A DNA stretch of 64,000 nt, taken from the IMG/VR virus record IMGVR_UViG_3300037455_000372, positions 203,710-267,709 of that record. One strand, given 5' to 3'. A program made the translations under genes and the position numbers. The notes beneath the pieces are model-generated. The model was given only the letters and a program-made list of their open reading frames with translations, ran no database searches and was not told where the DNA came from. The stretch comes from a virus. Its lineage: Duplodnaviria > Heunggongvirae > Uroviricota > Caudoviricetes. Position 1 is the first letter of the stretch. The number at the start of each line of letters is the position of its first letter. Positions 21,750-61,654 of the stretch are shown piece by piece.

Positions 21750-21778
21750 TTGCATTACAAACTCGGATGTATTATATT
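21750..21778 (+). promoter_or_regulatory. Sigma70-type promoter of the phage sigma gene
   Basis: TTGCAT-N17-TATATT. Confidence 0.65.
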
Positions 21779-21806
21779 TATTCACAATTCCACAAAGCGA
21801 GTGCGG

Positions 21807-22619
21807 ATGAAGACCTATGAAGAAGATTGGTCTACGAAGAAACTGATTGAGGAAACTGTAAAGTACAAAATCCTCGGACGAAAGGCCGAAACTGAGCTAT
21901 TTCGTGAATTCCATTCAACAAAAGACGAAAAAAGGCGTACCGAAATAAAGCTCGCCATAATACAGTCTAACTTGAGATTCGTACTGGCTGTAGCCAGAGC
22001 GTACAAGAAGACGACCGGTCTGCCGATCAACGATTTCTTTGCCGAGGGAAAACTCGGTATGCTCGAAGCATTCAACAAGTACGACTACACTTGCGGCACG
22101 AAGTTCGGCTCGTTCGCAGTTTTCGAGGTTCGACGCCATATGGACCTGATTGTCCACAACAGCGATATGGTTCGAGTACCGGTTAGAATCCGTAAACGCG
22201 TTCTGAAGGCTAGGAAAAAAGGCGAATCGGTTGAACATATCCAATATGGCCAGCTTGCCGACAACGCCGTATCAGAACCCGCCTCGGTCGAACGAAGCAT
22301 CGTAGGCGATACGGCAAAGAACCGAACCCCAATCGTCTTGGTAGATACGCTGGCTTCCGACGAGCGTACCGACGCCAATCTGGAAGACGAAATGCGCCGT
22401 GACAAGCTAAAATCGATCCTAGAAGACAACTTGACACCAGAAGAGACTAATTTACTGCGTAGACTGTATGGCTTGGATGGATACGAAGATACCGTTAGTG
22501 AAATTTCCGCTGAACGCCGTGTCAGCAAGGAAATCATACGCCGCATTAGGAATCGTGCGTTGGCAAAGCTAAGAAGTGTACCCGTCGTGTCCGAGCTTCG
22601 AGATGCGCTGGGTAGTTAA
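21807..22619 (+). CDS. RNA polymerase sigma70-family factor
   Basis: Region 2 SNLRFV..EG.LG...A..KYD...GTKF.S.A; region 4 HTH TVSEI..VSKEIIRRI..RALAKLR. Confidence 0.9.
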   Translation: MKTYEEDWSTKKLIEETVKYKILGRKAETELFREFHSTKDEKRRTEIKLAIIQSNLRFVLAVARAYKKTTGLPINDFFAEGKLGMLEAFNKYDYTCGTKFGSFAVFEVRRHMDLIVHNSDMVRVPVRIRKRVLKARKKGESVEHIQYGQLADNAVSEPASVERSIVGDTAKNRTPIVLVDTLASDERTDANLEDEMRRDKLKSILEDNLTPEETNLLRRLYGLDGYEDTVSEISAERRVSKEIIRRIRNRALAKLRSVPVVSELRDALGS

Positions 22620-31957: not shown

Positions 31958-34534
31958 ATGCTAATTTCTGTAATTAAGCGAGACTACCGCAAAAGACCAT
32001 TTGACACCAAACACATTTATGACGCCATTGAAGCCGCGTTTAAGGACTGCAAGGAGTCATATACCAATGAACAGCTTGACGGACTAGTAGGGTCGGTCGT
32101 AGATGAATTGAGTGCGGGTGGCAAGAAATCCGCTAACGTGGAAACCATCCAAGATACCATCGAAAACGTCTTGATGAACAACGGTATGAACGCCGTCGCC
32201 AAGGCATTTATCGAATACCGCCAGAACCGCGCTCGGATTCGTGAAAACCAGAGCGGAATTTATGCGATTATCCGCCGACTCAAACACGATAAATTGTCTA
32301 GCTGCAACATCTTGCGCGATAACGCAAATGAATCTGGCGTTACCCCGGCTGGTATGTACGGTAAGATTGCCAGTGAAATGAACAAGATGTACAACTGCTT
32401 GAACACGATTTCCGAGAAGTACGTTAACGAGCACGCCAATGGTCAGATTCATATTCACGACCAGAACTTTTATGACCTCTCCTTTAACTGCTTGTTTGCC
32501 CCGGTGGGTAAGTTACTACGAGAAGGATTTGATTCTGGTACAGGGTTCTTGAGAAAGGCTAATTCGATCCAATCCGCCGCCGCATTGACCGCTGTTATTT
32601 TGCAGCTGCAGTCTAACCAGCAGTATGGCGGTATCGCGTGCGACAATATCGACTTTGACTTGGCTCCGTTTGTTGATATTTCGTTCCGAAAGAATTTGGG
32701 TCGTGAAATGAATGGGCTTGCGGTTTGCTCTAAGAACCCGGAATATGCAGAATACCTTGCACTGCCGACCGAGAAGAAGATTGACGATACGATTGCCCGT
32801 ATTGCAAAAACGCTCCAATCGCGTGGCGTAACGATGGATAGTCCTAGAGAGTTATTGTACTCCCAGTTCCCTATCGAACAAGTTGACCGTGCCATCGAAT
32901 TTACGGATAGTAATACCCACCAAGCGATGGAAGCACTGGTTCACAACTTGAATTCGTTGCAATCAAGGTCTGGTAACCAAGTACCGTTCTCTTCTTTGAA
33001 TTTCGGTATTGATACTTCCAATTGCGGTCGAATGCTCAGTAAGAACCTTATGCGTGCTCAGTACGAAGGTATGGGCGACGGTCTTACGGCCATCTTCCCC
33101 ATTTTGATTTTTAAGCTTATGAAGGGGTTCTCCAAGCTTACGACTGATCCTAATTACGACTTGTATTTGCAAGCGGTTGAATGCTTGGCCCGTCGTTTCT
33201 ACCCGAATTTTGTAAAGGTCGACTCCAAGTTTAACCTTCCGTATGTGAAGTATGACACCGTTGAACTTGATTTTAAGGATGGACAGCGGATTTCTCACCG
33301 TGGGTGTGATGATTCTATTACAGTGACAGCCGACACGGACATCGAAACTGCTAAAGGTGAATATCCGATTTATTCTGTAAATCTTGGCGTTGGCAGTAAC
33401 TGGGATATCGTGTCTTGTAAGGGGTTCCACGCAAAGCTCCGTCGAATTGTTCCTAACACTACCGTGGCAACGATGGGATGTCGTACCCGCGTTATTGGTA
33501 ATGTGAACGGTGTTCAGCAGACGACTGGACGTGGAAATTTCGCTTTCCACACGATTAACCTTCCGCGTCTGGCCATTGAAGCTCATATCGAGTCCACCAA
33601 CGTCGAAACCCGCAAAAATTTGTTCTTTAGCAAGCTTGACGCTATGCTTGAAGATGCCAAGGGAAGCCTTCTCGAACGCTTTAAACTGATTTGCGAGAAA
33701 ACGTATGAGAATTTCCCCTTTACTATGCAGCAAGGCGTATATTTGACTTCCGACGATAAGCCGCATAAGCTCACCGACAAGATTGCCGAGGTTATGAAGC
33801 AGTCTACGCTGAGCATTGGTTATGTTGGTATTGCCGAAACAATTCGCGTTATTACTGGCAAGACGTATGGCGTTGACCACGAAGAGGATGAGTTTGCACT
33901 ATCCATTGTCAAGCGCATTCGTGACTTTTGTGACCAGACTCAGGCTGAAACACACTTGAACTGGAGCTGTTTTGCAACACCGGCTGAAGCTGTTGCCGGT
34001 CGTTTTGCAACAATCGATAAGAATAAGTTCTCCAAGGAAGTAACCGACGAGAATGGTCATACGATGTTGGTTGCAAAGAACAAGAAACTTGCTGATGTGG
34101 ATTTGCATAGACTGTTTGGTAAGGGTTACTATACCAACAGCCATATGATGGATTTCTCGCTCGAAACGTCTCTTGAAAACAAGATTAAGACCGAGGCTCC
34201 TTTCCACGCTTTGACGAATGCTGGCCACATCTTCTACTTCAAGATGAATGGCGACTTGACTAAGAATGTCGAGGCGGTAAAGGCTACCATTGATGCAATG
34301 TATGACGGCGACTTGGGCTATTTCACCGTGACAATGGATTCGGACGACTGCTTGGAATGCGGATTCCACGGCATTATCAATAATGAATGCCCGAAATGCC
34401 ATTGTAATGATGAAGATAAGTTTGTTCGGGTGAGACGTATTACTGGATATTTGACTGGGTCGCCGAGAAAGACGATCAAGAAGTCTTGGGGTGATGGAAA
34501 GCTGGCCGAGCTGGAAGACCGTCACAATATCTAA
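31958..34534 (+). CDS. nrdD: Anaerobic ribonucleoside-triphosphate reductase with ATP cone
   Basis: VIKRD ATP cone, HIHD, MGCRT, TPAE, YYTNS, CxxC..CxxC and the glycyl-radical loop RRITGYL. Confidence 0.97.
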   Translation: MLISVIKRDYRKRPFDTKHIYDAIEAAFKDCKESYTNEQLDGLVGSVVDELSAGGKKSANVETIQDTIENVLMNNGMNAVAKAFIEYRQNRARIRENQSGIYAIIRRLKHDKLSSCNILRDNANESGVTPAGMYGKIASEMNKMYNCLNTISEKYVNEHANGQIHIHDQNFYDLSFNCLFAPVGKLLREGFDSGTGFLRKANSIQSAAALTAVILQLQSNQQYGGIACDNIDFDLAPFVDISFRKNLGREMNGLAVCSKNPEYAEYLALPTEKKIDDTIARIAKTLQSRGVTMDSPRELLYSQFPIEQVDRAIEFTDSNTHQAMEALVHNLNSLQSRSGNQVPFSSLNFGIDTSNCGRMLSKNLMRAQYEGMGDGLTAIFPILIFKLMKGFSKLTTDPNYDLYLQAVECLARRFYPNFVKVDSKFNLPYVKYDTVELDFKDGQRISHRGCDDSITVTADTDIETAKGEYPIYSVNLGVGSNWDIVSCKGFHAKLRRIVPNTTVATMGCRTRVIGNVNGVQQTTGRGNFAFHTINLPRLAIEAHIESTNVETRKNLFFSKLDAMLEDAKGSLLERFKLICEKTYENFPFTMQQGVYLTSDDKPHKLTDKIAEVMKQSTLSIGYVGIAETIRVITGKTYGVDHEEDEFALSIVKRIRDFCDQTQAETHLNWSCFATPAEAVAGRFATIDKNKFSKEVTDENGHTMLVAKNKKLADVDLHRLFGKGYYTNSHMMDFSLETSLENKIKTEAPFHALTNAGHIFYFKMNGDLTKNVEAVKATIDAMYDGDLGYFTVTMDSDDCLECGFHGIINNECPKCHCNDEDKFVRVRRITGYLTGSPRKTIKKSWGDGKLAELEDRHNI

Positions 34535-34571
34535 ACTAGTGAACACCGCCAAGTACATTTAAAGGTCAATA

Positions 34572-34698
34572 TATAAACTTCCTTTAGAATACTTGGTGGA
34601 ACTCGTATTCAAATATAAGTTTCGGATACCCTTGGTATACGCAGAGTTCCACAATATTGCTATACCGAGGGTATCTTTTTAGGTATCTTATGGAACTC
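34572..34698 (+). promoter_or_regulatory. TATAAACT promoter and structured 5' leader of the endonuclease gene
   Basis: Motif at 34572-34579; 15-bp hairpin 34625-34675; loop GAGTTCCAC is complementary to 34596-34604 and to 34691-34698. Confidence 0.6.
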
Positions 34699-35739
34699 AA
34701 GATATTAGAAACTGACGAAGACTTTAACCAATTTGTGATGGTTAAAGGTGTATGTAATCGAACAAAGTGTGTATTTAAGTGTCGAGTGTGTGGAAACATA
34801 GATACTAAATCGGTTGCCGCGATGCGGCACTACCCATTTAAATGCAAATCGTGTACGCTAAAAGAGTCTCACAAAGGTGATGAATATATACAGAAGCTTC
34901 ATAAAACCAAGCTTGAAAAGTACGGAGACCCGTTATACATCAATACTGCTAAGATTCGAGCCGTGTTAAACGAAAGGTATGGCGGTTCGCCATTAAATGA
35001 CCCTGAAATTAAAGAAAAATATATCAAAACTATGATGGCAAAGTACGGTTGCGAACATCCTAGTCAAATGAATGACTATGTTGAAAAGTGTAAATCTACT
35101 CGATTAAAGAATTTCGGTGATGAAAATTTTAATAACCGCGAAAAATCTAGGCAAACTTGTTTAGCTGTCTATGGGGTGGAACACGCTATTCAGAACGCCG
35201 AGGTTATTCAGAAGTCGAAAAGTACGAAGACTATGCTTTATGGCGACCCAACTTTTAATAATCACGAAAAAACGATTAGAACAAATATGGAACGATATGG
35301 GGTTCCCGCAACTATGCAAGTCAAAGAATTTTCGGACAAAACACATTCCAAATATATCTATAATGGAATGTTATTTGATAGCACTAATGAAATTGCTTAC
35401 TATATTTGGTTAGTTGATAACGGACACACGGTCGAATATCAACCAGCCGTTGAGTTTGACTATCAATATGACGGCAGTCTGCATAAATACTATCCAGATT
35501 TTATGGTTGATGGCCAATTAGTAGAGATCAAGGGGTTACAGTTCTTTGAAAATAAGGATGCGTCAAGTAAGATGATAAATCCGTATGACCGCCGTATGGA
35601 CGGCTTATATGAAGCTAAACACCAGTGTATGGTTGCCCATAACGTCAAAATCGTAACTGATTGTAAAGCGGCAATCAAATATGTCTCTAGCAAATATGGT
35701 CCAAAATTTCTAAGTTCTTGCAAGAATAAGAGGAAATAG
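34690..35739 (+). CDS. Free-standing homing-endonuclease-like protein (Zn ribbon, KYG repeats, PD-(D/E)XK nuclease)
   Basis: Two CxxC motifs, repeated K..T...(K/R)YG units, FDSTNE..YYPDF..VEIKG; AT-richer than its flanks. Confidence 0.75.
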   Translation: MELKILETDEDFNQFVMVKGVCNRTKCVFKCRVCGNIDTKSVAAMRHYPFKCKSCTLKESHKGDEYIQKLHKTKLEKYGDPLYINTAKIRAVLNERYGGSPLNDPEIKEKYIKTMMAKYGCEHPSQMNDYVEKCKSTRLKNFGDENFNNREKSRQTCLAVYGVEHAIQNAEVIQKSKSTKTMLYGDPTFNNHEKTIRTNMERYGVPATMQVKEFSDKTHSKYIYNGMLFDSTNEIAYYIWLVDNGHTVEYQPAVEFDYQYDGSLHKYYPDFMVDGQLVEIKGLQFFENKDASSKMINPYDRRMDGLYEAKHQCMVAHNVKIVTDCKAAIKYVSSKYGPKFLSSCKNKRK

Positions 35740-39371: not shown

Positions 39372-40061
39372 TTAGGTTGCGTTTACGTCATCGGCTGCTG
39401 GCTGTTCTGGCTGGTCTTGCGGTTGCTGTTCGGCACCGCCGTCGCCTCCGGTAGGCTTGGGAGCCTCTTGCTTTTCGGCTGCCTTGGCTTGTTCTGCTGA
39501 CGCCTTCTTGGCTTGGTCGACCGCCTTCTGACTACACGAGTTGGTAAGGATCAGAATTGCTCTTGTAATGTCAGCCGCCGTGTAGTTGTCGGAACACTTG
39601 GATGCGAAATTCTCGACCGCCTTCGTGATGTACGGGACCAGTTTCTCCACTTTCATCTTCTGCTGCGGATTGGTAATACCGAGGTCGTGCAGAGCGGTGC
39701 GTGCGACAAGTCGGAGGTTTCCGGCGGCCTTGAAATCGTTGGCGAGCTTCTGGGCGGTAGGAGCCACGCCGTTGTCCGCCTTTTGGTCGGTGTTTACGGC
39801 TTCGGCTGACGATTCTGGGTCGGCATCGGTAGCGGGGTCTTGCTGCGGCTGCTCTTCGGCTGGCTGTTCGGTGGGCTGTTCCTCTGTCTGCGGCTCGGCG
39901 TTTTCCTCAGCCGGTGCTTCGGGAGCTGGCTCTTCGGTCGGTGCTTCTTGGCCATCGGTAGCCTCTTCCGGACCGGGTGCTTGGCCATCTTCACCCTCGA
40001 AAATGAAGCATCCGCCGTTACGGAAAGCCTCTATAAAGTCGTCGTTAATGCTGTATGCCAT
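39372..40061 (-). CDS. Acidic low-complexity protein
   Basis: Start reassigned to ATG 40061, downstream of TATAAACT at 40088-40095. Confidence 0.75.
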   Translation of the reverse strand: MAYSINDDFIEAFRNGGCFIFEGEDGQAPGPEEATDGQEAPTEEPAPEAPAEENAEPQTEEQPTEQPAEEQPQQDPATDADPESSAEAVNTDQKADNGVAPTAQKLANDFKAAGNLRLVARTALHDLGITNPQQKMKVEKLVPYITKAVENFASKCSDNYTAADITRAILILTNSCSQKAVDQAKKASAEQAKAAEKQEAPKPTGGDGGAEQQPQDQPEQPAADDVNAT

Positions 40062-40099
40062 AAGAAACTCTTTTTCTTGTCTCTTGCAGTTTATACGGT

Positions 40100-40260
40100 G
40101 GGTTACGTCCAACCGTGTGAACTACGCACCGCCTAAAGGCGGTGAGCTTCGCGTTGCGTATCGATGTTTCCCGCGCCTTTAACCGCAGTCCCTGCGGCGA
40201 TTAAACTTTTACCTTCGGTAAGGATGTTGATAGCGGCATTGACATCACGGTCGTGTGACG
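40100..40260 (-). ncRNA. Predicted TnpB omega/reRNA (scaffold plus flank-derived guide ACGGTTGGACGTAACC)
   Basis: Inferred from the established TnpB architecture: scaffold overlaps the tnpB 3' end and right end. The 5' boundary is approximate. Confidence 0.55.
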
Positions 40261-41432
40261 TGCCGCACTGCGGACACGTCCACGACCTTACGTTCAAGTC
40301 CTTTGTCAACATATTCTTGAACCCACAGCAGTGACATAGCTGAGATGATGGGAACCATCGTCCGACCCGGACTATGGTTCTGCCATACCATTCAGCCTTG
40401 TACTGTAGTTTGTTCAGGAACATCCTCCAAGCTGTGTCGTGTTCGGACTTCGCGTGGTCGCCTTCTGCGACCTCGCGCACGTCCAAGTCCTCGACCACCA
40501 CCGTTTGGTTCTCGCGGAGTAGTCGTGTAGACAGCTTGTCAAGGAAATCCTTCCTTCGGTTAGCAACTTTTTCGTGTTCACGAGCGATGCGCAAGCGCAA
40601 TGCCTCGTGTCTCTTTGAACCATTCTGCTTCTTGGCGAAAGCTCGCTGAAGGCCAGCGATACGAGTTTCTGATTTCTTGAGGAAACGAGGATTCGCGACG
40701 GCTTCGCCGTCGCTGGTAACGCAGAATTCTTTAAGTCCTAAGTCGATTCCTATTTCGAATTCGGTTGTAGGTAATGCCTTCGGCACAGCTTCTTCGACTA
40801 GGATTGACGCATAGTATTTCCCGGCGCGTGACCGTGACACCGTTACGTGCTTGATGTTTCTTACAGACCAGTCGATGTCCTCGTAGTTGCGGAAGGAAAC
40901 GAAGCCTACCTTCGGTAGGCGGAGTTTCCTCCCTTCTACACGGATATTATCCTTCGTTCGATAACTTGTATACGAATCCTTGTCTTTATGTTTCGACTTA
41001 AACTGCGGAAATCCGACACCGTCGGCCTTCCGCTCGAAGAAGTTCTTAAACGCCGTATTCAACGTAAGCACTTCGGCTGTCAATGCGTTCGAGTCGACTT
41101 CCTTCAAGAAAGGAAACTCGGCGTAGAAATCTGTCGGCTTAGACCGGCACTTCGTGCCGGTCGCCTCGTACGATTTCTTGCGTGCTTCCAACATACAGTT
41201 GTATACCTTACGGCAGCAGCCGAAAGTCTTGCAAAGCAAGACTTCTTGCTGCTTGTTAGGATACAGTCTGACGTTGTAGGCACGTTGAAACATAGTTCAA
41301 TAGTTCTAATTTTTATATAGTTTATATGACTAGTTAAATTATTTTTGTCAAGTTCCGCACATATCATCTGCCACCCTAAAGGGTACCCCAGCACCTAGCG
41401 GTGCTGGGTGGCAGTTTTCTCGGCGCGTTCGT
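40117..41432 (-). mobile_element. IS200/IS605-family tnpB-only element (IS1341-like, non-autonomous)
   Basis: Right-end hairpin CACCGCCTTTAGGCGGTG followed by TAGTTCAC; left-end hairpin 41368-41414; TTTAT abuts the left end; no tnpA or target duplication; the empty site rebuilds an inverted repeat. Confidence 0.85.
40133..41293 (-). CDS. tnpB: RNA-guided endonuclease TnpB
   Basis: HTH RLYPN..FGCCRKVYN; RuvC residues in GIDLG, VVEDL and DRDVNAAIN all present; Zn finger CHCC..CPQC. Confidence 0.95.
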   Translation of the reverse strand: MFQRAYNVRLYPNKQQEVLLCKTFGCCRKVYNCMLEARKKSYEATGTKCRSKPTDFYAEFPFLKEVDSNALTAEVLTLNTAFKNFFERKADGVGFPQFKSKHKDKDSYTSYRTKDNIRVEGRKLRLPKVGFVSFRNYEDIDWSVRNIKHVTVSRSRAGKYYASILVEEAVPKALPTTEFEIGIDLGLKEFCVTSDGEAVANPRFLKKSETRIAGLQRAFAKKQNGSKRHEALRLRIAREHEKVANRRKDFLDKLSTRLLRENQTVVVEDLDVREVAEGDHAKSEHDTAWRMFLNKLQYKAEWYGRTIVRVGRWFPSSQLCHCCGFKNMLTKDLNVRSWTCPQCGTSHDRDVNAAINILTEGKSLIAAGTAVKGAGNIDTQREAHRL

Positions 41433-41467
41433 ATAAACTGATGGAAAAGCCGTTTGATGGATGTAGT

Positions 41468-44400
41468 ATGGAAATTAAGACGCACGTATTGACCAATCCG
41501 CAGAATCTCAGTGAGGAACGGAAACTCCAAGCTCGCAAAAACATTGACTTGGGGAATGTTGAGAATACATCCGATATGGACAAACCGGTATCGACCGCAC
41601 AACAGGCCGCCATTGACGCGCTTGGTACTACGGTCGATGGTAAGCTGGCTGGAAAGGTCGACAAGGAGGCTGGAAAGGGTCTCTCGACCAACGATTTCGA
41701 CGATACGTACAAATCACACGTCGATGAAAGTTACGAAATGCGTCATTCGCATAGCAACCAGAGTGAGCTTGACCAGCTCACCGGAGACGCCATTGCCAGT
41801 GCCGAAACGACTGACGAAGGCAAGACTCTGGTGCTCCATCCTATCGAAGGTGAAGCCGTTACCTTTAGCGGCGAACAGAACGCTATCAACACCATTTCGC
41901 AGAATGGCGTAACTCTTCCGATTGACAATAAAAATGTCGAAATTACGGAAACCATCCAGTCTATTTCCAAGAATGGAACTCCGTTGGTTCCTGACGCGAA
42001 CCACAACGTGGACATTACGATTGAAAGCCCGGTGACTCCGTATGAGGAAACTCCGGCGATGAACGGTACTGGTAGTGCTGGTTCTTCGGCTCTGTACTCT
42101 CGCGGCGACCACGTTCACCCTTCCGACACCACGAAGGCTGACAAGGACAGTGATGCGATAGCAGACCATTTGGCTAAGTTCGACAGCAACGGAAATCCGG
42201 TCGATTCTGGTATTGCGGTTTCTGAGTTGAGCAAACTTCACGAACACGAAAACAAGTCTATTCTCGACAATACGACGGCGTCGTACACGGTCGAGGATAA
42301 GGACAAGCTTGATAATATTGCCGAAGGTGCGACCAAGGTCGAGGAATCCGCAACCAATGGCAATGTCATAATCGATGGTACTGAAACTACGGTTTACACT
42401 CATCCAACTACGGAGGCTACCGCTGCAGCCGCAGTTAAGGTCGGTAACAATTCCGAAGGACACGTAGTCCTTGGTGATCCGTTGACCAAGGGTGACGTTG
42501 GTCTCGGAAATGTCGATAACACGAGCGATGCCGATAAGCCGATTTCTACAGCTACGCAAGCGGCGTTGGACAATAAGGTTGATAAAGAAGAAGGCAAGGG
42601 TCTTTCTACTAACGACTTTACCAACGATTATAAGACGAAACTTGATGGAATCGAAGCCGGAGCACAAGTCAACGTAATCGAGCATATTAAGGTCAACAAT
42701 ATCGAACAGACGCCTAGCGAAAAGACGGTCAACCTTGATTTGACTGGTTATAAGACCGTTCAAGAAGCCGTCGGCGACCCGTCCGCTGAAGGAACTGGTA
42801 CCGACTTTATTTCTTCGCTTACCCAGAGTTCGAATGGTAATATCACGGCTTCCAAGAAGACGGTTCAAGATGGTACGACCGCACAAAAGGGTATTGTACA
42901 GCTTGAAGATTCTGTGATCAGTGATTCTACGGACAAGGCGGCTACTCCGCATAGTGTCAAGCAAGCTTACACGCTTGCTGATGGTAAGCAAGACCCGATT
43001 ACGTTTGACGGAACCTATAACGCATCGACTAATAAGGCAGCGACTGTTTCGACGGTTACAAATGCTATCAATGATTTGGATTCTGAGGTAACTTCGTCCA
43101 ATGGAAAGAATGTCCAAGTTAAGGTAACCGAAACGAACGGTAAAATTACCGAAGTAAGCGTAACTACGGATAATACGCTTAACGAAAGCGATATTCTTAG
43201 TAAGGCAAATAAAGTAAATCCAGCTGTTGCTGGTAATTTTGCTGGGTTGTCGGCTGACGGTGATTTAACCGATTCCGGTAAGAAGGCGGCTGATTTTGCG
43301 ACGGCTGCACAAGGTGCTACGGCTGACACTGCTGTTCAAGGAATTTTATTGAACGGTGTAGAGCTTGACAAGGGTGTAGACGATAAAAAGGTAAACCTTG
43401 GTAACTTGAAGATTAAACAGAATGCCGTGTCTGACCCGACTACGTCTGGAAATACTAGCGATTTCCAATTTATTAGCGGTATCACACAAAATGAAAATGG
43501 CGAAATGTCTGCCACTAAGCATACCATTCCAGTTGCCGTCGCGACAGATGCTCAAGGCCAGACTGATGGCCTTATGTCGAAAGACGATAAGAAGAAGCTG
43601 AATGGTATTGCTGAAGGTGCCGAAGTAAACAAGATTGAGAAGGTTAAAATCGCCGGGTCTGAGTTGACTATCGACTCGGCTGACCGTTCTGTCAACATTC
43701 CAGATGCTGCTACCAATGTTAAAGGTGTGGTTAAGCTAACCAGCGATATTGATAGCGAAGATAACAATTCTGCCATTACTCCTACTGCTGTTAGAAATGC
43801 GTTAAAGAGTCGAGCTGTATTCTGGTCGGAATCCGACTGGGAAGACCACGCGCCAAATCCGGGTGACCCGTCTAAGGTCAACTATGTCTATGATTCAGAC
43901 AATCCGGGTGAGGACAAGTACAATGTCTATGTGTGGGACGTTAATGCCAACAGTTACAAGAAGATTGACGAATCGACAATTTCTTTAGACGGCTATTGGC
44001 ATAACGGACCGACTGAAACCGGAGTCGCTGGTGGTAATGTAGTTACGGATTTGACGCTTGGTAACGATGGTGTTCCGGTTGTGACTAAGGGAACTCTTGG
44101 TGACGGTACGTTGACGGTTACGGTTGGTTCGGCAAATGCGCAGACATTCTCGGCTAACCAGACATCTAATGTGTCAGTTACTGTTCCTCTTGCACAATCG
44201 GCTTCCGAAAACCCAGATACACACGAACTGATTCCAGCATCGGAAGGTCTTATCTCGGCTTCCGATAAGTCGAAACTCGATAGTATGACCGCTGGTGCTC
44301 AGCCGAATGTAATCGAAAGTGTCGGTATGGAAGGCGAATCCAGCAATCTGCCGATTGTTGACAAACACGTTGAAATTCCGTTGGCTACCTCTGCAACTAC

Positions 44401-46651
44401 AAGCCCAGCGGCAGCGGCAAAAACTGGCCTTATGTCTGGTGCTGATAAGGCTCGCCTCGACGGTATGACTGATGGAGCTGAGCCGAATACAATTGACTCC
44501 ATTTCGGTCAACGGTACCGCAGTCCAACCAGACGGCAATAAGAACGTCGATTTAACTATTGGAGACGCTACGGTTACTTTTGCGCTCGGAGGTGTTGCTT
44601 CGGGTGATACCAGCCCGTCAGTTGGTTCTTTCTCGACCAATCAGGTAGCGAATGCAACCATTACGATTCCGGCGGCTGTATCTGCGACTACTGATGGTAA
44701 TACCCTAGTCCCAGCAAAACCGGGTGTTATGAGTTCTGCCGATAAAACGACCCTTGATAATGTTGCCAATGCGGTTAAGGATATCACGCTTGAAGGAGAA
44801 TCTGACCCGCTTACGGTTACAAACAACGCGGTTGAGATTCCGTTGGCTAGTGCAGATGACGACGGTGCAGGTAGTGTCACCTATTCGCCGGGTCTTGTAA
44901 CTGGACAAGAACGTGAAAAGATACAGAATTTGGTGAACTTCTCTACCGTCGCTGTAAGTGATGGAGAATCCACTCCGACTATTACAAATGTTGTTCCAAG
45001 TACAGCAGACGATACCTTGACGCTGGTTGCCGGAAATAACGTTACGCTTACTCCGGACGTGAACTCGAATAGCATAACTATTTCATCATCTGGTTCTGGT
45101 TCCGATGTTACGGTAAGCGGAAGTGATGGTATTTCAGTTACCGAAACGGTTGATCCTAATACAGGTGTAAAGGATTTCAACGTCTCGGTAACTGGTGGCC
45201 TTGGAATCGTGTCTGGTCACGCGTCTGTAATTAACCCAGAAGCAGTTGCGCCAAGCACAACGGCTGTAGTAGACCTTATTCCATCGTCGGCAATTGGTTC
45301 GTTTAATGTTCCAAATGACCGTATCAAGCTAATGTATGACGCGGATACTGGTCACGTTTATCTGTGTGCGCTAAAGACTATCGCAAGTGTTAATCCGTCG
45401 GACGCCGTTCACGGAGTTGATACTTTTACTATATCGATGAATACGCGGTTAGACCGAAACCCGACAAGACACGGATTTTATGGAGAAGCTTTAACTCAAG
45501 TATCTCGTGTACTTGACGGTAGTACGCAAATCCTAGCGCAAGCGTTCGAATCATATCCGTCTGAAATCGGTTGTGCTACGATGAATCTGACCGTTACAAT
45601 TCAGAATACCAGTGGTTTGGCGTATCGCGATCCGGTAAGCAATAAGTTGTATTATCGTTATTTGCTGACATACAGCGGAGATGCTGCTGATACGACGGTT
45701 GAGTCAATGTCGCTTTATACGTTGCTTAGTGCCGTCGAAGAAACCGTTGGTATAGCCGAGTATAGCAACAGTTCTACAACTTATACAAGTGGTTCTGGTA
45801 TTTTTATTAGCCCAACCGATAATAGTATATCGGTACTGGATGGTCCGGGTCTTGAAGTTGATTCGTCTACGAATCAGTTACAAGTTAAGATTAAGCCCAA
45901 TGGTGGTATAAAAATTGATAATGATGGCGTCAGCTTGGTTCTTGATGTTCAAGCCGAAGAAGCTGTTGAAATTGCACACGAAGTAAAAAATGTAATCGAT
46001 GAACGTATTATTACTGATATGTCGTTCAGCGAAATTCACGAAGCGTATACATCAAACCAGCATTTCCCGGCACGCGACGGTGATGGCCAAATGTATGGAA
46101 CCTTGTTTACGCCAGTTATGAGCCAACAGCTAACCGCTGGCGCGAAAATGGGTATCTATATGGGTGAATTAAGTAGCCAAGGCCGGTTTGCGCTTGCTAT
46201 TTACCAGTACGATTTCACTTCCAATTTGACTCTGGTTTGCTATACCGATGTTATGACGTGTGATCCTAGTTCTATTCCACCGGCATCGTCCACGGTGTCC
46301 GCTTTCCGTGAATTTACCGTTCATATCAACGATGCTTGCGATACATTGTCGTCAGAAAAGCTTTATTACGCTTGCGTGGTGTTGCTAAAGGATTCTGGCG
46401 GCAACGAGCCTGTATTAAAGCAAATGTGTGGTACTAGTGGATATAATACGAACATTAACGGTGTTCCTCGATTGACAATTGCGGTAAATCACCTTCAAAA
46501 TTTCTGTGGCGGTAATATCAATAACCTAGATACGCAGAGTTTTAAAAACTATCTATCGACAATCAGCGCGACCGCTGGAAGTGAACAAGCTTCTACGCCA
46601 AGAATCTTTATATCGGTTCGAAACATTCCGGTCGTATCGAATAACGCATAA
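41468..46651 (+). CDS. Long tail fibre-like protein with internal repeats
   Basis: Two LGNV.NTSD.DKP.ST..KVDK..GKGLSTNDF units and several GL(M/I)S..DK.KLD..GA..N.I units. Start moved to 41468 because 41408 lies inside the IS. Confidence 0.85.
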   Translation: MEIKTHVLTNPQNLSEERKLQARKNIDLGNVENTSDMDKPVSTAQQAAIDALGTTVDGKLAGKVDKEAGKGLSTNDFDDTYKSHVDESYEMRHSHSNQSELDQLTGDAIASAETTDEGKTLVLHPIEGEAVTFSGEQNAINTISQNGVTLPIDNKNVEITETIQSISKNGTPLVPDANHNVDITIESPVTPYEETPAMNGTGSAGSSALYSRGDHVHPSDTTKADKDSDAIADHLAKFDSNGNPVDSGIAVSELSKLHEHENKSILDNTTASYTVEDKDKLDNIAEGATKVEESATNGNVIIDGTETTVYTHPTTEATAAAAVKVGNNSEGHVVLGDPLTKGDVGLGNVDNTSDADKPISTATQAALDNKVDKEEGKGLSTNDFTNDYKTKLDGIEAGAQVNVIEHIKVNNIEQTPSEKTVNLDLTGYKTVQEAVGDPSAEGTGTDFISSLTQSSNGNITASKKTVQDGTTAQKGIVQLEDSVISDSTDKAATPHSVKQAYTLADGKQDPITFDGTYNASTNKAATVSTVTNAINDLDSEVTSSNGKNVQVKVTETNGKITEVSVTTDNTLNESDILSKANKVNPAVAGNFAGLSADGDLTDSGKKAADFATAAQGATADTAVQGILLNGVELDKGVDDKKVNLGNLKIKQNAVSDPTTSGNTSDFQFISGITQNENGEMSATKHTIPVAVATDAQGQTDGLMSKDDKKKLNGIAEGAEVNKIEKVKIAGSELTIDSADRSVNIPDAATNVKGVVKLTSDIDSEDNNSAITPTAVRNALKSRAVFWSESDWEDHAPNPGDPSKVNYVYDSDNPGEDKYNVYVWDVNANSYKKIDESTISLDGYWHNGPTETGVAGGNVVTDLTLGNDGVPVVTKGTLGDGTLTVTVGSANAQTFSANQTSNVSVTVPLAQSASENPDTHELIPASEGLISASDKSKLDSMTAGAQPNVIESVGMEGESSNLPIVDKHVEIPLATSATTSPAAAAKTGLMSGADKARLDGMTDGAEPNTIDSISVNGTAVQPDGNKNVDLTIGDATVTFALGGVASGDTSPSVGSFSTNQVANATITIPAAVSATTDGNTLVPAKPGVMSSADKTTLDNVANAVKDITLEGESDPLTVTNNAVEIPLASADDDGAGSVTYSPGLVTGQEREKIQNLVNFSTVAVSDGESTPTITNVVPSTADDTLTLVAGNNVTLTPDVNSNSITISSSGSGSDVTVSGSDGISVTETVDPNTGVKDFNVSVTGGLGIVSGHASVINPEAVAPSTTAVVDLIPSSAIGSFNVPNDRIKLMYDADTGHVYLCALKTIASVNPSDAVHGVDTFTISMNTRLDRNPTRHGFYGEALTQVSRVLDGSTQILAQAFESYPSEIGCATMNLTVTIQNTSGLAYRDPVSNKLYYRYLLTYSGDAADTTVESMSLYTLLSAVEETVGIAEYSNSSTTYTSGSGIFISPTDNSISVLDGPGLEVDSSTNQLQVKIKPNGGIKIDNDGVSLVLDVQAEEAVEIAHEVKNVIDERIITDMSFSEIHEAYTSNQHFPARDGDGQMYGTLFTPVMSQQLTAGAKMGIYMGELSSQGRFALAIYQYDFTSNLTLVCYTDVMTCDPSSIPPASSTVSAFREFTVHINDACDTLSSEKLYYACVVLLKDSGGNEPVLKQMCGTSGYNTNINGVPRLTIAVNHLQNFCGGNINNLDTQSFKNYLSTISATAGSEQASTPRIFISVRNIPVVSNNA

Positions 46652-60934: not shown

Positions 60935-61654
60935 ATGGCTTATATCAAGGCGAGCTTTCTCGCTATGAAAGATGAAAACGGTCGAGACCTAGGCACGATG
61001 GCTACCGGTCTCGCGAGAGATTATGCGCGTAAGAAGGGAATGGAACTTGTCGCAGTGAACGAAAACGTCGACCCGCCGATTTACACGGTAAAGCCGCGCC
61101 AGCGTTTCGTTCCCCGTGTTCAAGACGACAAGTCCCAGTATGAAGTTACCGCAGCGACCGTCCGCTGTACGGACGAGACCGGAAAGTCTCTCGGCGTCAT
61201 CTCAACTGCTGAAGCGAAGAAACTGGCCGAAGAACGCGGACTGTCTCTTATCGCCGTGAACAACAAGATTGATCCGCCGATCGGTCGCATCGGTGACTTG
61301 AACAAGTACATCTACGACCAGAAGAAGGCTCAGAAGGAAAAGGAAAAGAAGAACCGCGCCGCAGCGAAGGCTTGCGAAAAGAAGGACTTGAAGCTCACTT
61401 CCGACACGACTCCGTCCTCCCAAGCTGACCGAGACCGTATTATGAAGCAAGCGAACGATTTCTTGAAGGACGGTCACCCGGTAGACCTGACCATCCGCTT
61501 CCGTGGCCGCGAGATTTCCCACGCGGAGACTTCGATGAACCGCATCCGCGACGAAATCCTCCACGGTATCGTTGAAGGAACGGTCACTAAGGAAACCCGT
61601 AACCAGAACGGCGATACCTACACGATTAGCTGCAATCCGGTAAAGAAAAAGTAA
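60935..61654 (+). CDS. infC: Translation initiation factor IF-3 homolog with tandem N-terminal domains
   Basis: Two DE.G..LG....A...A...G..L..V....DPP units, KYIYDQKK linker, FL..G..V....RFRGRE C-domain. Confidence 0.88.
   Translation: MAYIKASFLAMKDENGRDLGTMATGLARDYARKKGMELVAVNENVDPPIYTVKPRQRFVPRVQDDKSQYEVTAATVRCTDETGKSLGVISTAEAKKLAEERGLSLIAVNNKIDPPIGRIGDLNKYIYDQKKAQKEKEKKNRAAAKACEKKDLKLTSDTTPSSQADRDRIMKQANDFLKDGHPVDLTIRFRGREISHAETSMNRIRDEILHGIVEGTVTKETRNQNGDTYTISCNPVKKK

Follow-up and report, generated by a model that had tools for sequence, protein, structure and literature searches.

The locus analysed here raises two questions: why does a transposon-derived nuclease gene lie one base inside a likely phage promoter, and what has kept it there? 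The stretch of DNA that was analysed (the window, 64,000 nt) belongs to a single 355,392-bp virus record with T4-like genes for terminase, baseplate, head closure, major head, portal, polymerase, clamp loader and a UvsX-like recombinase. The genome is 91% coding, and the runs that hold the window stretch are ruminant or other gut metagenomes; clues to the host in a Pfam search amounted to two weak Fib_succ_major matches under the cut-off. RNA runs cover small parts of this stretch only. The window also encodes a translation initiation factor IF3 and a sigma-70-type sigma factor (60935-61654 and 21750-22619).

The element (40117..41432, minus strand) is a 1,316-bp unit of the IS200/IS605 type that carries tnpB without tnpA. 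On its right flank lies a 229-aa gene (39372..40061, minus strand), with orthologues 90-97% identical and no match in Pfam and PHROG searches, and on its left flank a long fibre-like gene (41468..46651, plus strand; Phage_fiber_2, E 4e-13), which has a second in-frame ATG at 41441. In silico excision of 40117-41432 yields exactly CAGTTTATACGGT-N12-ACCGTATAAACTG, as an earlier note on this sequence had proposed, and the 13-bp repeat so formed is made up of 5 nt and two promoter motifs arranged back to back. Comparable pairs occur elsewhere in the genome, at 110605/110637, 160871/160910 and 305388/305418.

The alignment with relatives that had been suggested as a check returned three empty alleles with the predicted junction, TTTAT-ACGGTT (the hyphen marks the insertion point), without duplication: two from relatives about 97% identical genome-wide (L029 and L030) and one from run X3. 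These alleles place the ends of the element directly after TTTAT and at a terminal TCAC. The ends given previously were therefore right, but the repeat does not fix them as had been claimed: in the window alone they can slide by 3 nt, because ACG begins both the element and its right flank. Reading this ACG as a 3-bp target duplication was ruled out, as sister copies have no such repeat. Likewise, the description of a 13-bp inverted repeat around a 12-nt spacer is true of the window sequence but not of the empty alleles, in which the spacer is longer, by 4 nt in both L029 and L030 (16 nt in L030 and X3), and in L029 the repeat carries one substitution; the window allele has lost 4 nt just past the guide. 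Of the four orthologues of the 229-aa gene that were found, those in L029 and L030 adjoin the fibre gene directly, and a different gene lies upstream of the remaining two.

Among the 4 of 24 listed runs that were examined, the X3 contig skips the element and reads the predicted TAM and all 16 guide bases, run X5 carries the whole filled allele within one 108-kb contig (82 differences over 2.5 kb), and in run X2 the filled left junction is bridged. As filled (X5, X2) and empty (X3) alleles both exist, the insertion site is polymorphic among close relatives. Pieces of the filled junction in X3 and X13 fall below the 31-letter threshold and give no more than a hint that the two alleles coexist within a run.

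The motif at whose edge the element lies is likely to be a late promoter, judging from its position and from the few annotated genes behind it. The window contains 14 copies of the 8-mer TATAAACT, where shuffled sequences contain 1.9 on average and 7 at most, and the whole genome contains 58. N-ATAAACT lies 5-50 nt ahead of a gene start in 59 cases, with a peak at 24-29 nt; the first base varies at these sites (T 44, G 9, A 3, C 3), so the core is ATAAACT, and in some relatives G is commoner there than T (29 vs 10 in G004). Annotated genes directly behind the motif comprise two terminase pieces and genes for baseplate wedge, head closure, amidase, a Dps-like protein, a homing endonuclease and the fibre, 34 of the 40 proteins searched having no match. 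The motif does not directly precede the genes for polymerase, primase, helicase, ssb, clamp loader, ligase or UvsX, nor those for major head and portal. We take it to resemble the T4 late-promoter consensus.

At the insertion site, one copy of TATAAACT (41432..41439, plus strand) stands 28 nt before the fibre ATG at 41468, its first T being the first base of the element, and another (40088..40095, minus strand) stands 27 nt before the ATG of the 229-aa gene at 40061; these are the likely late promoters of the two genes. The target motif and predicted TAM, TTTAT (41433..41437, minus strand), reads as ATAAA on the opposite strand, within the promoter core; it is retained in the empty alleles, and the same motif lies 5' of 25 sister left ends. 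Elsewhere in the window, an nrdD match is split into two stretches, possibly by an insert, and is followed by a homing-endonuclease-like gene (31958-35739 in all) with TATAAACT ahead of the latter at 34572.

The tnpB gene (40133..41293, minus strand) encodes 386 aa with matches to Pfam HTH_OrfB_IS605, OrfB_IS605 and Cas12f1-like_TNB and to ISDra2 TnpB (E 2e-79). HTH, WED/RuvC and zinc-finger regions are all present, and the RuvC triad D184/E268/D350 is intact here and invariant in 12 of 12 aligned TnpB proteins. The element encodes TnpB domains only, with no GIY-YIG or HNH domain of the kind found in T4 seg and mob endonucleases. A Rfam search of the window at gathering thresholds gave no matches, and there is no group I intron in the left part. 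The Y1 TnpA domain (PF01797) was found neither in the virus record itself nor in any of 18 related contigs, 16 of which are less than 90% complete, which makes this a tnpB-only, non-autonomous element.

Both ends have the subterminal hairpins of the IS200/IS605 group. At the left end, a hairpin at 41368..41414 (minus strand; ssDNA fold z = -3.5, with none of 200 shuffles as stable) follows the guide tetranucleotide AAAA (41415..41418, minus strand; +15 to +18), which under the IS608 rule predicts TTAT. At the right end, GAAG (40147..40150, minus strand) lies 5' of a hairpin at 40125-40146, in whose stem seven of eight pairs have changed on both sides, and by the IS608 GR/CR scheme predicts the cleavage site TCAC (40117-40120). 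Across the family the guide and cleavage pairs are AAAA/TTAT, AAAC/TTAG and GAAG/TCAC, with GAAA/TCAT in lineage 2, and they fit those of IS608 (PMC5934647).

A predicted omega-RNA, comprising scaffold and right end, overlaps the 3' end of tnpB (40117..40225, minus strand; 5' limit approximate). When 13 right ends are aligned, a structure of three stems with an additional GAA/TTC pairing leaves 96.9% of cells paired, with nine pairs changed on both sides, which exceeds 500 of 500 shuffles and every slid control; the structure was drawn from the same 13 sequences, which favours it. The putative pseudoknot between GAA (-100) and TTC (-5 to -3) has three invariant pairs, consistent with pairing and without covariation; that of the ISDra2 omega-RNA (PMC10097598) is similar. 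Support for the structure comes from covariation, as the single-sequence fold of the region was no better than shuffles (z = -0.13).

One feature of the element is, in our analysis, new: tnpB has its own copy of the phage motif and is likely to be transcribed from it. Within the 139-nt leader, an internal TATAAACT (41319..41326, minus strand) lies 25 nt before the ATG, and a sigma-70 scan found no site worth retaining ahead of the gene. ATAAAC(T/A) stands 22-32 nt before the tnpB ATG in all 18 lineage-1 elements examined, and ATAA(A/G)CT about 100 nt before it in eight of eight lineage-2 elements; among loci of at least 2,600 nt, the motif preceded tnpB in none of the 69 bacterial cases and in none of the 64 from distant viruses. 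Several further phage contigs carry distant tnpB-like genes with TATAAACT upstream, in several cases with a structured leader (G002 C1:18787; G008 C1:226564 and 95000; G015 C1:41800; G018 C1:44900).

Protein and DNA scans and fetched contigs yielded a family of such elements. Lineage 1 is 70-96% identical; lineage 2, one copy of which lies at the start of the present phage genome (G000), is about 40% identical with a similar left end, and there are tnpB-less short copies of about 185 nt. In lineage 2 (G000 C1:1-977, L243; L281-L289), a leader of about 100 nt has two alternative pairings, one a terminator-like hairpin, with compensatory changes, and is attenuator-like in appearance. The mini elements (L065, L067, L070 and G008 C1:97213-97403) join a left end to an omega-RNA right end; most of them lie at the promoter motif, and they could supply guides in trans. 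Two individual loci stand apart: L059 (about 1350-1410, tnpB strand) has lost the left-end hairpin and retains an intact tnpB and both promoter motifs, so that it would be immobile by TnpA and in principle still capable of homing, and L347 (G000 C1:16763-18058) is a 431-aa ORF with a weak PHROG transposase match (E 6e-7) that tblastn with the window TnpB missed.

The earlier note had named TTTAT as the target motif, and two lines of evidence bear it out: the AAAA guide predicts TTAT, and the TAM-contact residues of the protein covary with the motif. Some lineage-1 copies are inserted at TTTAG instead, and among copies with an intact left end AAAA accompanies TTTAT sites and AAAC accompanies TTTAG sites. 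TnpB positions 68, 69, 73, 75 and 114 separate all 11 TTTAT from all seven TTTAG proteins, and the label switches twice on the lineage-1 tree. The five residues and one left-end guide base thus change together relative to the window tnpB on two tree branches (L004, L007, L010, L016, L052, L074 and L083). Positions 68, 69 and 114 align with K76, F77 and N124 of ISDra2 TnpB, which contact the TAM (PMC10097598); this covariation indirectly links the predicted TAM to the insertion motif.

To what extent are insertions concentrated at the promoter? After removal of duplicates and of copies without a readable left end, the junction set held 32 insertions, 25 of TTTAT type, six of TTTAG type and L007. 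Right-end-only copies (e.g. L054, L056, L060, L061, L066, L068, L073 and L078), L063 and L071 with their left ends unread, and one further left end of promoter type, from run X13, lie outside this count. AGTTTAT, that is, the motif on its template strand, holds 20 of the 25 distinct TTTAT-type insertions in related phages (15/17 in lineage 1 and minis, 5/8 in lineage 2), and an outward ORF start lies 6-37 nt away in all 20, as it does in only one of the other five. In 19 contigs, AG precedes TTTAT at 532 of 3,927 sites overall (0.135) and at 380 of 953 intergenic sites (0.399). The bias of sister copies that the earlier note had asked about is thus present, at 20/25 against 0.14 for all TTTAT and 0.38-0.40 for intergenic TTTAT.

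The excess survives stricter expectations. In 13 non-redundant contigs the expected share is 0.377 for intergenic sites and 0.496 for 'safe' intergenic sites, the latter being those judged harmless and their share ranging from 0.14 to 0.77 between contigs; the nulls rely on a crude ORF caller, with occupied sites included. Against them, 20/25 gives p = 2e-5 and 0.0018. Lineage 1 without the window copy (14/16) gives p = 0.002 at a null of 0.5, and lineage 2 alone (5/8) is not significant against the intergenic nulls (p = 0.14 and 0.35). With the null set to 0.6, the p values of the bias are 0.012 and 0.029. Five TTTAT-type copies lie outside the motif, and the TTTAG-type sisters persist without it.

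It had also been proposed that the terminal CGT of the element restores the promoter of the fibre gene. The 8-mer is indeed completed, but within it the element contributes only the first base, A on the tnpB strand. An A also begins all 11 copies outside the motif (30 of 32 elements overall, L007 set apart), and the leading A is therefore a family trait and not an adaptation to the site. At the 19 promoter sites with both ends available, the first base of the flank is A in nine, C in six and T in four; the 8-mer is restored exactly at 10 of these sites, including L003, whose element starts with C, and at the other nine the first base is altered, from G- or A-ATAAACT to T-ATAAACT. L007 had at first been counted as a promoter insertion and was dropped, as its empty allele (G013) shows a TTTAG target. 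There, a TTTAG-type insertion cut a promoter off its gene, and a new GATAAACT then arose across the left junction, so that selection can build the promoter pattern after insertion.

What would the nuclease be aimed at? The predicted 16-nt guide, ACGGTTGGACGTAACC, is flank DNA (40101..40116, minus strand) and matches the empty allele at 16/16 positions in X3, 15/16 in L030 and 13/16 in L029. The three mismatches of L029 fall at positions 7-9; for ISDra2 TnpB, two mismatches in positions 1-12 stop cutting (PMC10097598), and L029 would likely escape. The earlier suggestion that the guide addresses the same promoter pair in relatives without the element fits the X3 allele, but it applies to the orthologous site only and not to every promoter. 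The other promoter motifs differ from the guide at two or more of the first 12 positions, and the next-best matches to TAM plus guide all lie at such motifs, with 2-3 mismatches in 12; no self-target is predicted, as the phage genome has no TAM-plus-guide site with fewer than three mismatches in 12. In more distant empty alleles the number of matched seed bases is uneven, about 3 to 12 of 12. The exact 16-nt guide-side pattern was found at four loci in viral contigs (L033-L036), none of them among the empty alleles from BLAST.

Empty alleles were found for seven promoter sites, this one and six others, and like X3 they show insertion 3' of a fixed motif without target duplication. AGTTTAT is retained in 13 of 13 empty alleles at 67-95% identity, as would be expected of a predicted TAM that is also promoter core; at the non-promoter site L289, both orthologues are without TTTAT. 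No clear co-conversion tract was seen among the compared contigs. Separately, G018 and the present genome, G000 (C1:1-3847 in each), share a 3.8-kb tract, 96% identical, around a lineage-2 element and otherwise barely align, which may reflect co-conversion or an assembly chimera.

Our data are consistent with a model, which we hold to be probable on the sequence evidence, in which a transposase-less tnpB element, of a lineage seen only on phage-like contigs, lies one base inside a likely late promoter, spreads between co-infecting sister phages as an RNA-guided homing endonuclease, and is kept at promoters by selection and persistence. Rare insertion 3' of TTTAT would be carried out by a TnpA from outside the phage, the motif being set by the left-end AAAA by analogy to IS608. 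Insertion at the template strand of ATAAACT, which makes up 38-40% of non-coding TTTAT sites in these phages, would leave the core facing outward to its gene, with the first A of the element completing the 8-mer; copies so placed would likely cost little and hence persist. From its own motif, tnpB would probably be expressed late, like the T4 intron endonucleases, whose late promoters are similarly placed (PMC2988022). Guided by its omega-RNA, TnpB is predicted to cleave the orthologous site where this is still empty, recognized by TAM and 16-nt guide, and recombination would copy the element in, a step that the UvsX-like recombinase of the phage would fit; escape would be possible through the guide region only. 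The element is then a non-autonomous tnpB member of the IS200/IS605 group that most likely works like a phage homing endonuclease.

An alternative, which we consider rather unlikely, is that the bias arises at insertion, with TnpA acting in trans and preferring ATAAACT promoters where the template strand is open or replication stalls. The excess over the 'safe' null holds (p ~0.001-0.002) and includes three of five tnpB-less minis, which could not home alone. IS608, moreover, needs its target DNA in single-stranded form and has a preference for rrn genes with high transcription (PMC5027513), and three of six TTTAG sites (L010, L016 and L074) lie behind (T/C)ATAT(T), a possible early -10 box, ATA preceding 30 of 370 intergenic TTTAG. 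However, inspection of the left end by eye revealed no pairing partner for the AG ahead of TTTAT, nor any extended left-end/target pairing of the kind engineered in PMC5934647. In the TTTAG-type sisters, whose left ends are nearly identical, AG is present at none of six sites, and L007 is a case of a left-end promoter that formed once the element was already in place. We think that the promoter bias is mostly the product of selection and persistence, with a possible added preference at insertion.

We find it improbable that this is an ordinary non-autonomous IS whose TAM overlaps the promoter by AT-rich coincidence in a 91% coding genome, with TnpB guarding only against loss by excision and no spread between phages. 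TTTAT is a known bacterial TAM, that of ISGst2, and tnpA is missing from most tnpB elements (both 10.1101/2023.03.14.532601); the leading A is family-wide, and promoters account for 38-40% of intergenic TTTAT in any case. Against this, the best 80 of 214 matches in species genomes include no close relative on a bacterial chromosome: three close matches are short phage-like contigs and the remainder are at most 44% identical. These three (L083-L085) were rejected as host copies and appear to be mis-binned phage contigs, since L083 and L084 represent a single locus that was binned under two genera. The phage motif also precedes tnpB in every copy, and excision should be rare without tnpA in the phage, so that spread accounts better for the intactness of the nuclease. 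A domesticated regulator, in which TnpB would bind promoter TAMs and tune late transcription as TldR does, is highly improbable: the near-matches at other promoters that might suggest it are expected from shared promoter context, the catalytic triad is intact, and copies occupy many different, polymorphic sites with guides that differ at each.

Extending the homing model beyond this locus, we tentatively suggest that IS605-derived TnpB lineages may include phage-resident, self-reprogramming homing endonucleases that seek the late promoter, for which the motif would combine the roles of landing site, neutral harbour, expression signal and escape-proof TAM, and that this habit may have been adopted more than once in the phage family. 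In the literature searched, from which most subscription papers and supplements were absent, no promoter-sited TnpB elements were described in phages. New here are the motif copy ahead of tnpB, the five-residue switch of TnpB with its target, and the absence of tnpA from 19 contigs. The TTTAT/TTTAG protein pairs, 88-90% identical with five differing positions, offer natural material for mapping how a compact genome-editing nuclease selects its TAM.

The element resembles ISDra2, IS608 and ISGst2 (PMC10097598, PMC5934647, 10.1101/2023.03.14.532601) in its end hairpins with guide tetranucleotides, duplication-free insertion 3' of a short motif, a TnpB with RuvC triad, an omega-RNA over the right end and the frequent absence of tnpA, and shares its predicted TAM, TTTAT, with ISGst2. 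Unlike them, its lineage is found on phage-like contigs only, targets a phage promoter core, where 20 of 25 copies lie, carries a phage motif ahead of tnpB, and has natural TTTAT/TTTAG pairs with matching protein changes. TldR (PMC10705468, PMC13565253) is likewise a TnpB-family protein with its TAM in promoter regions, sometimes phage-borne, but it is a dead nuclease that works in trans at promoters of the host, whereas the window TnpB retains its triad inside a mobile element. IStrons (PMC10690162) are IS605/IS607 elements that also lower the cost of insertion; they reportedly splice out as RNA, whereas the window element has no intron and would avoid the cost by position in the promoter, a third way for an IS605 element to spare its host.

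The closest parallels to the proposed behaviour are with systems that spread by cutting. TnpB drives a plasmid gene drive by cutting IS-free copies of a multi-copy replicon (Mears et al., PMC11870625); that drive between replicon copies has been demonstrated, whereas the case of co-infecting lytic phages, with a TAM embedded in a promoter, is predicted from sequence. A 2026 review (PMC13565253) treats TnpB homing between phages as a theoretical type, and the present locus would provide a testable natural case of what has so far been shown only for plasmids. I-TevI/II/III, SegB and MobE of T4 (PMC2988022) likewise have a late promoter just upstream, spread to a related phage in mixed infection and keep neighbouring promoters working. 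The T4 enzymes recognize DNA through protein (GIY-YIG, HNH) and have no transposon ends, whereas the window element is predicted to be RNA-guided and to re-aim itself at each site. Mutation would not readily remove a TAM that is part of an essential promoter, much as with the conserved codons read by classic homing endonucleases.
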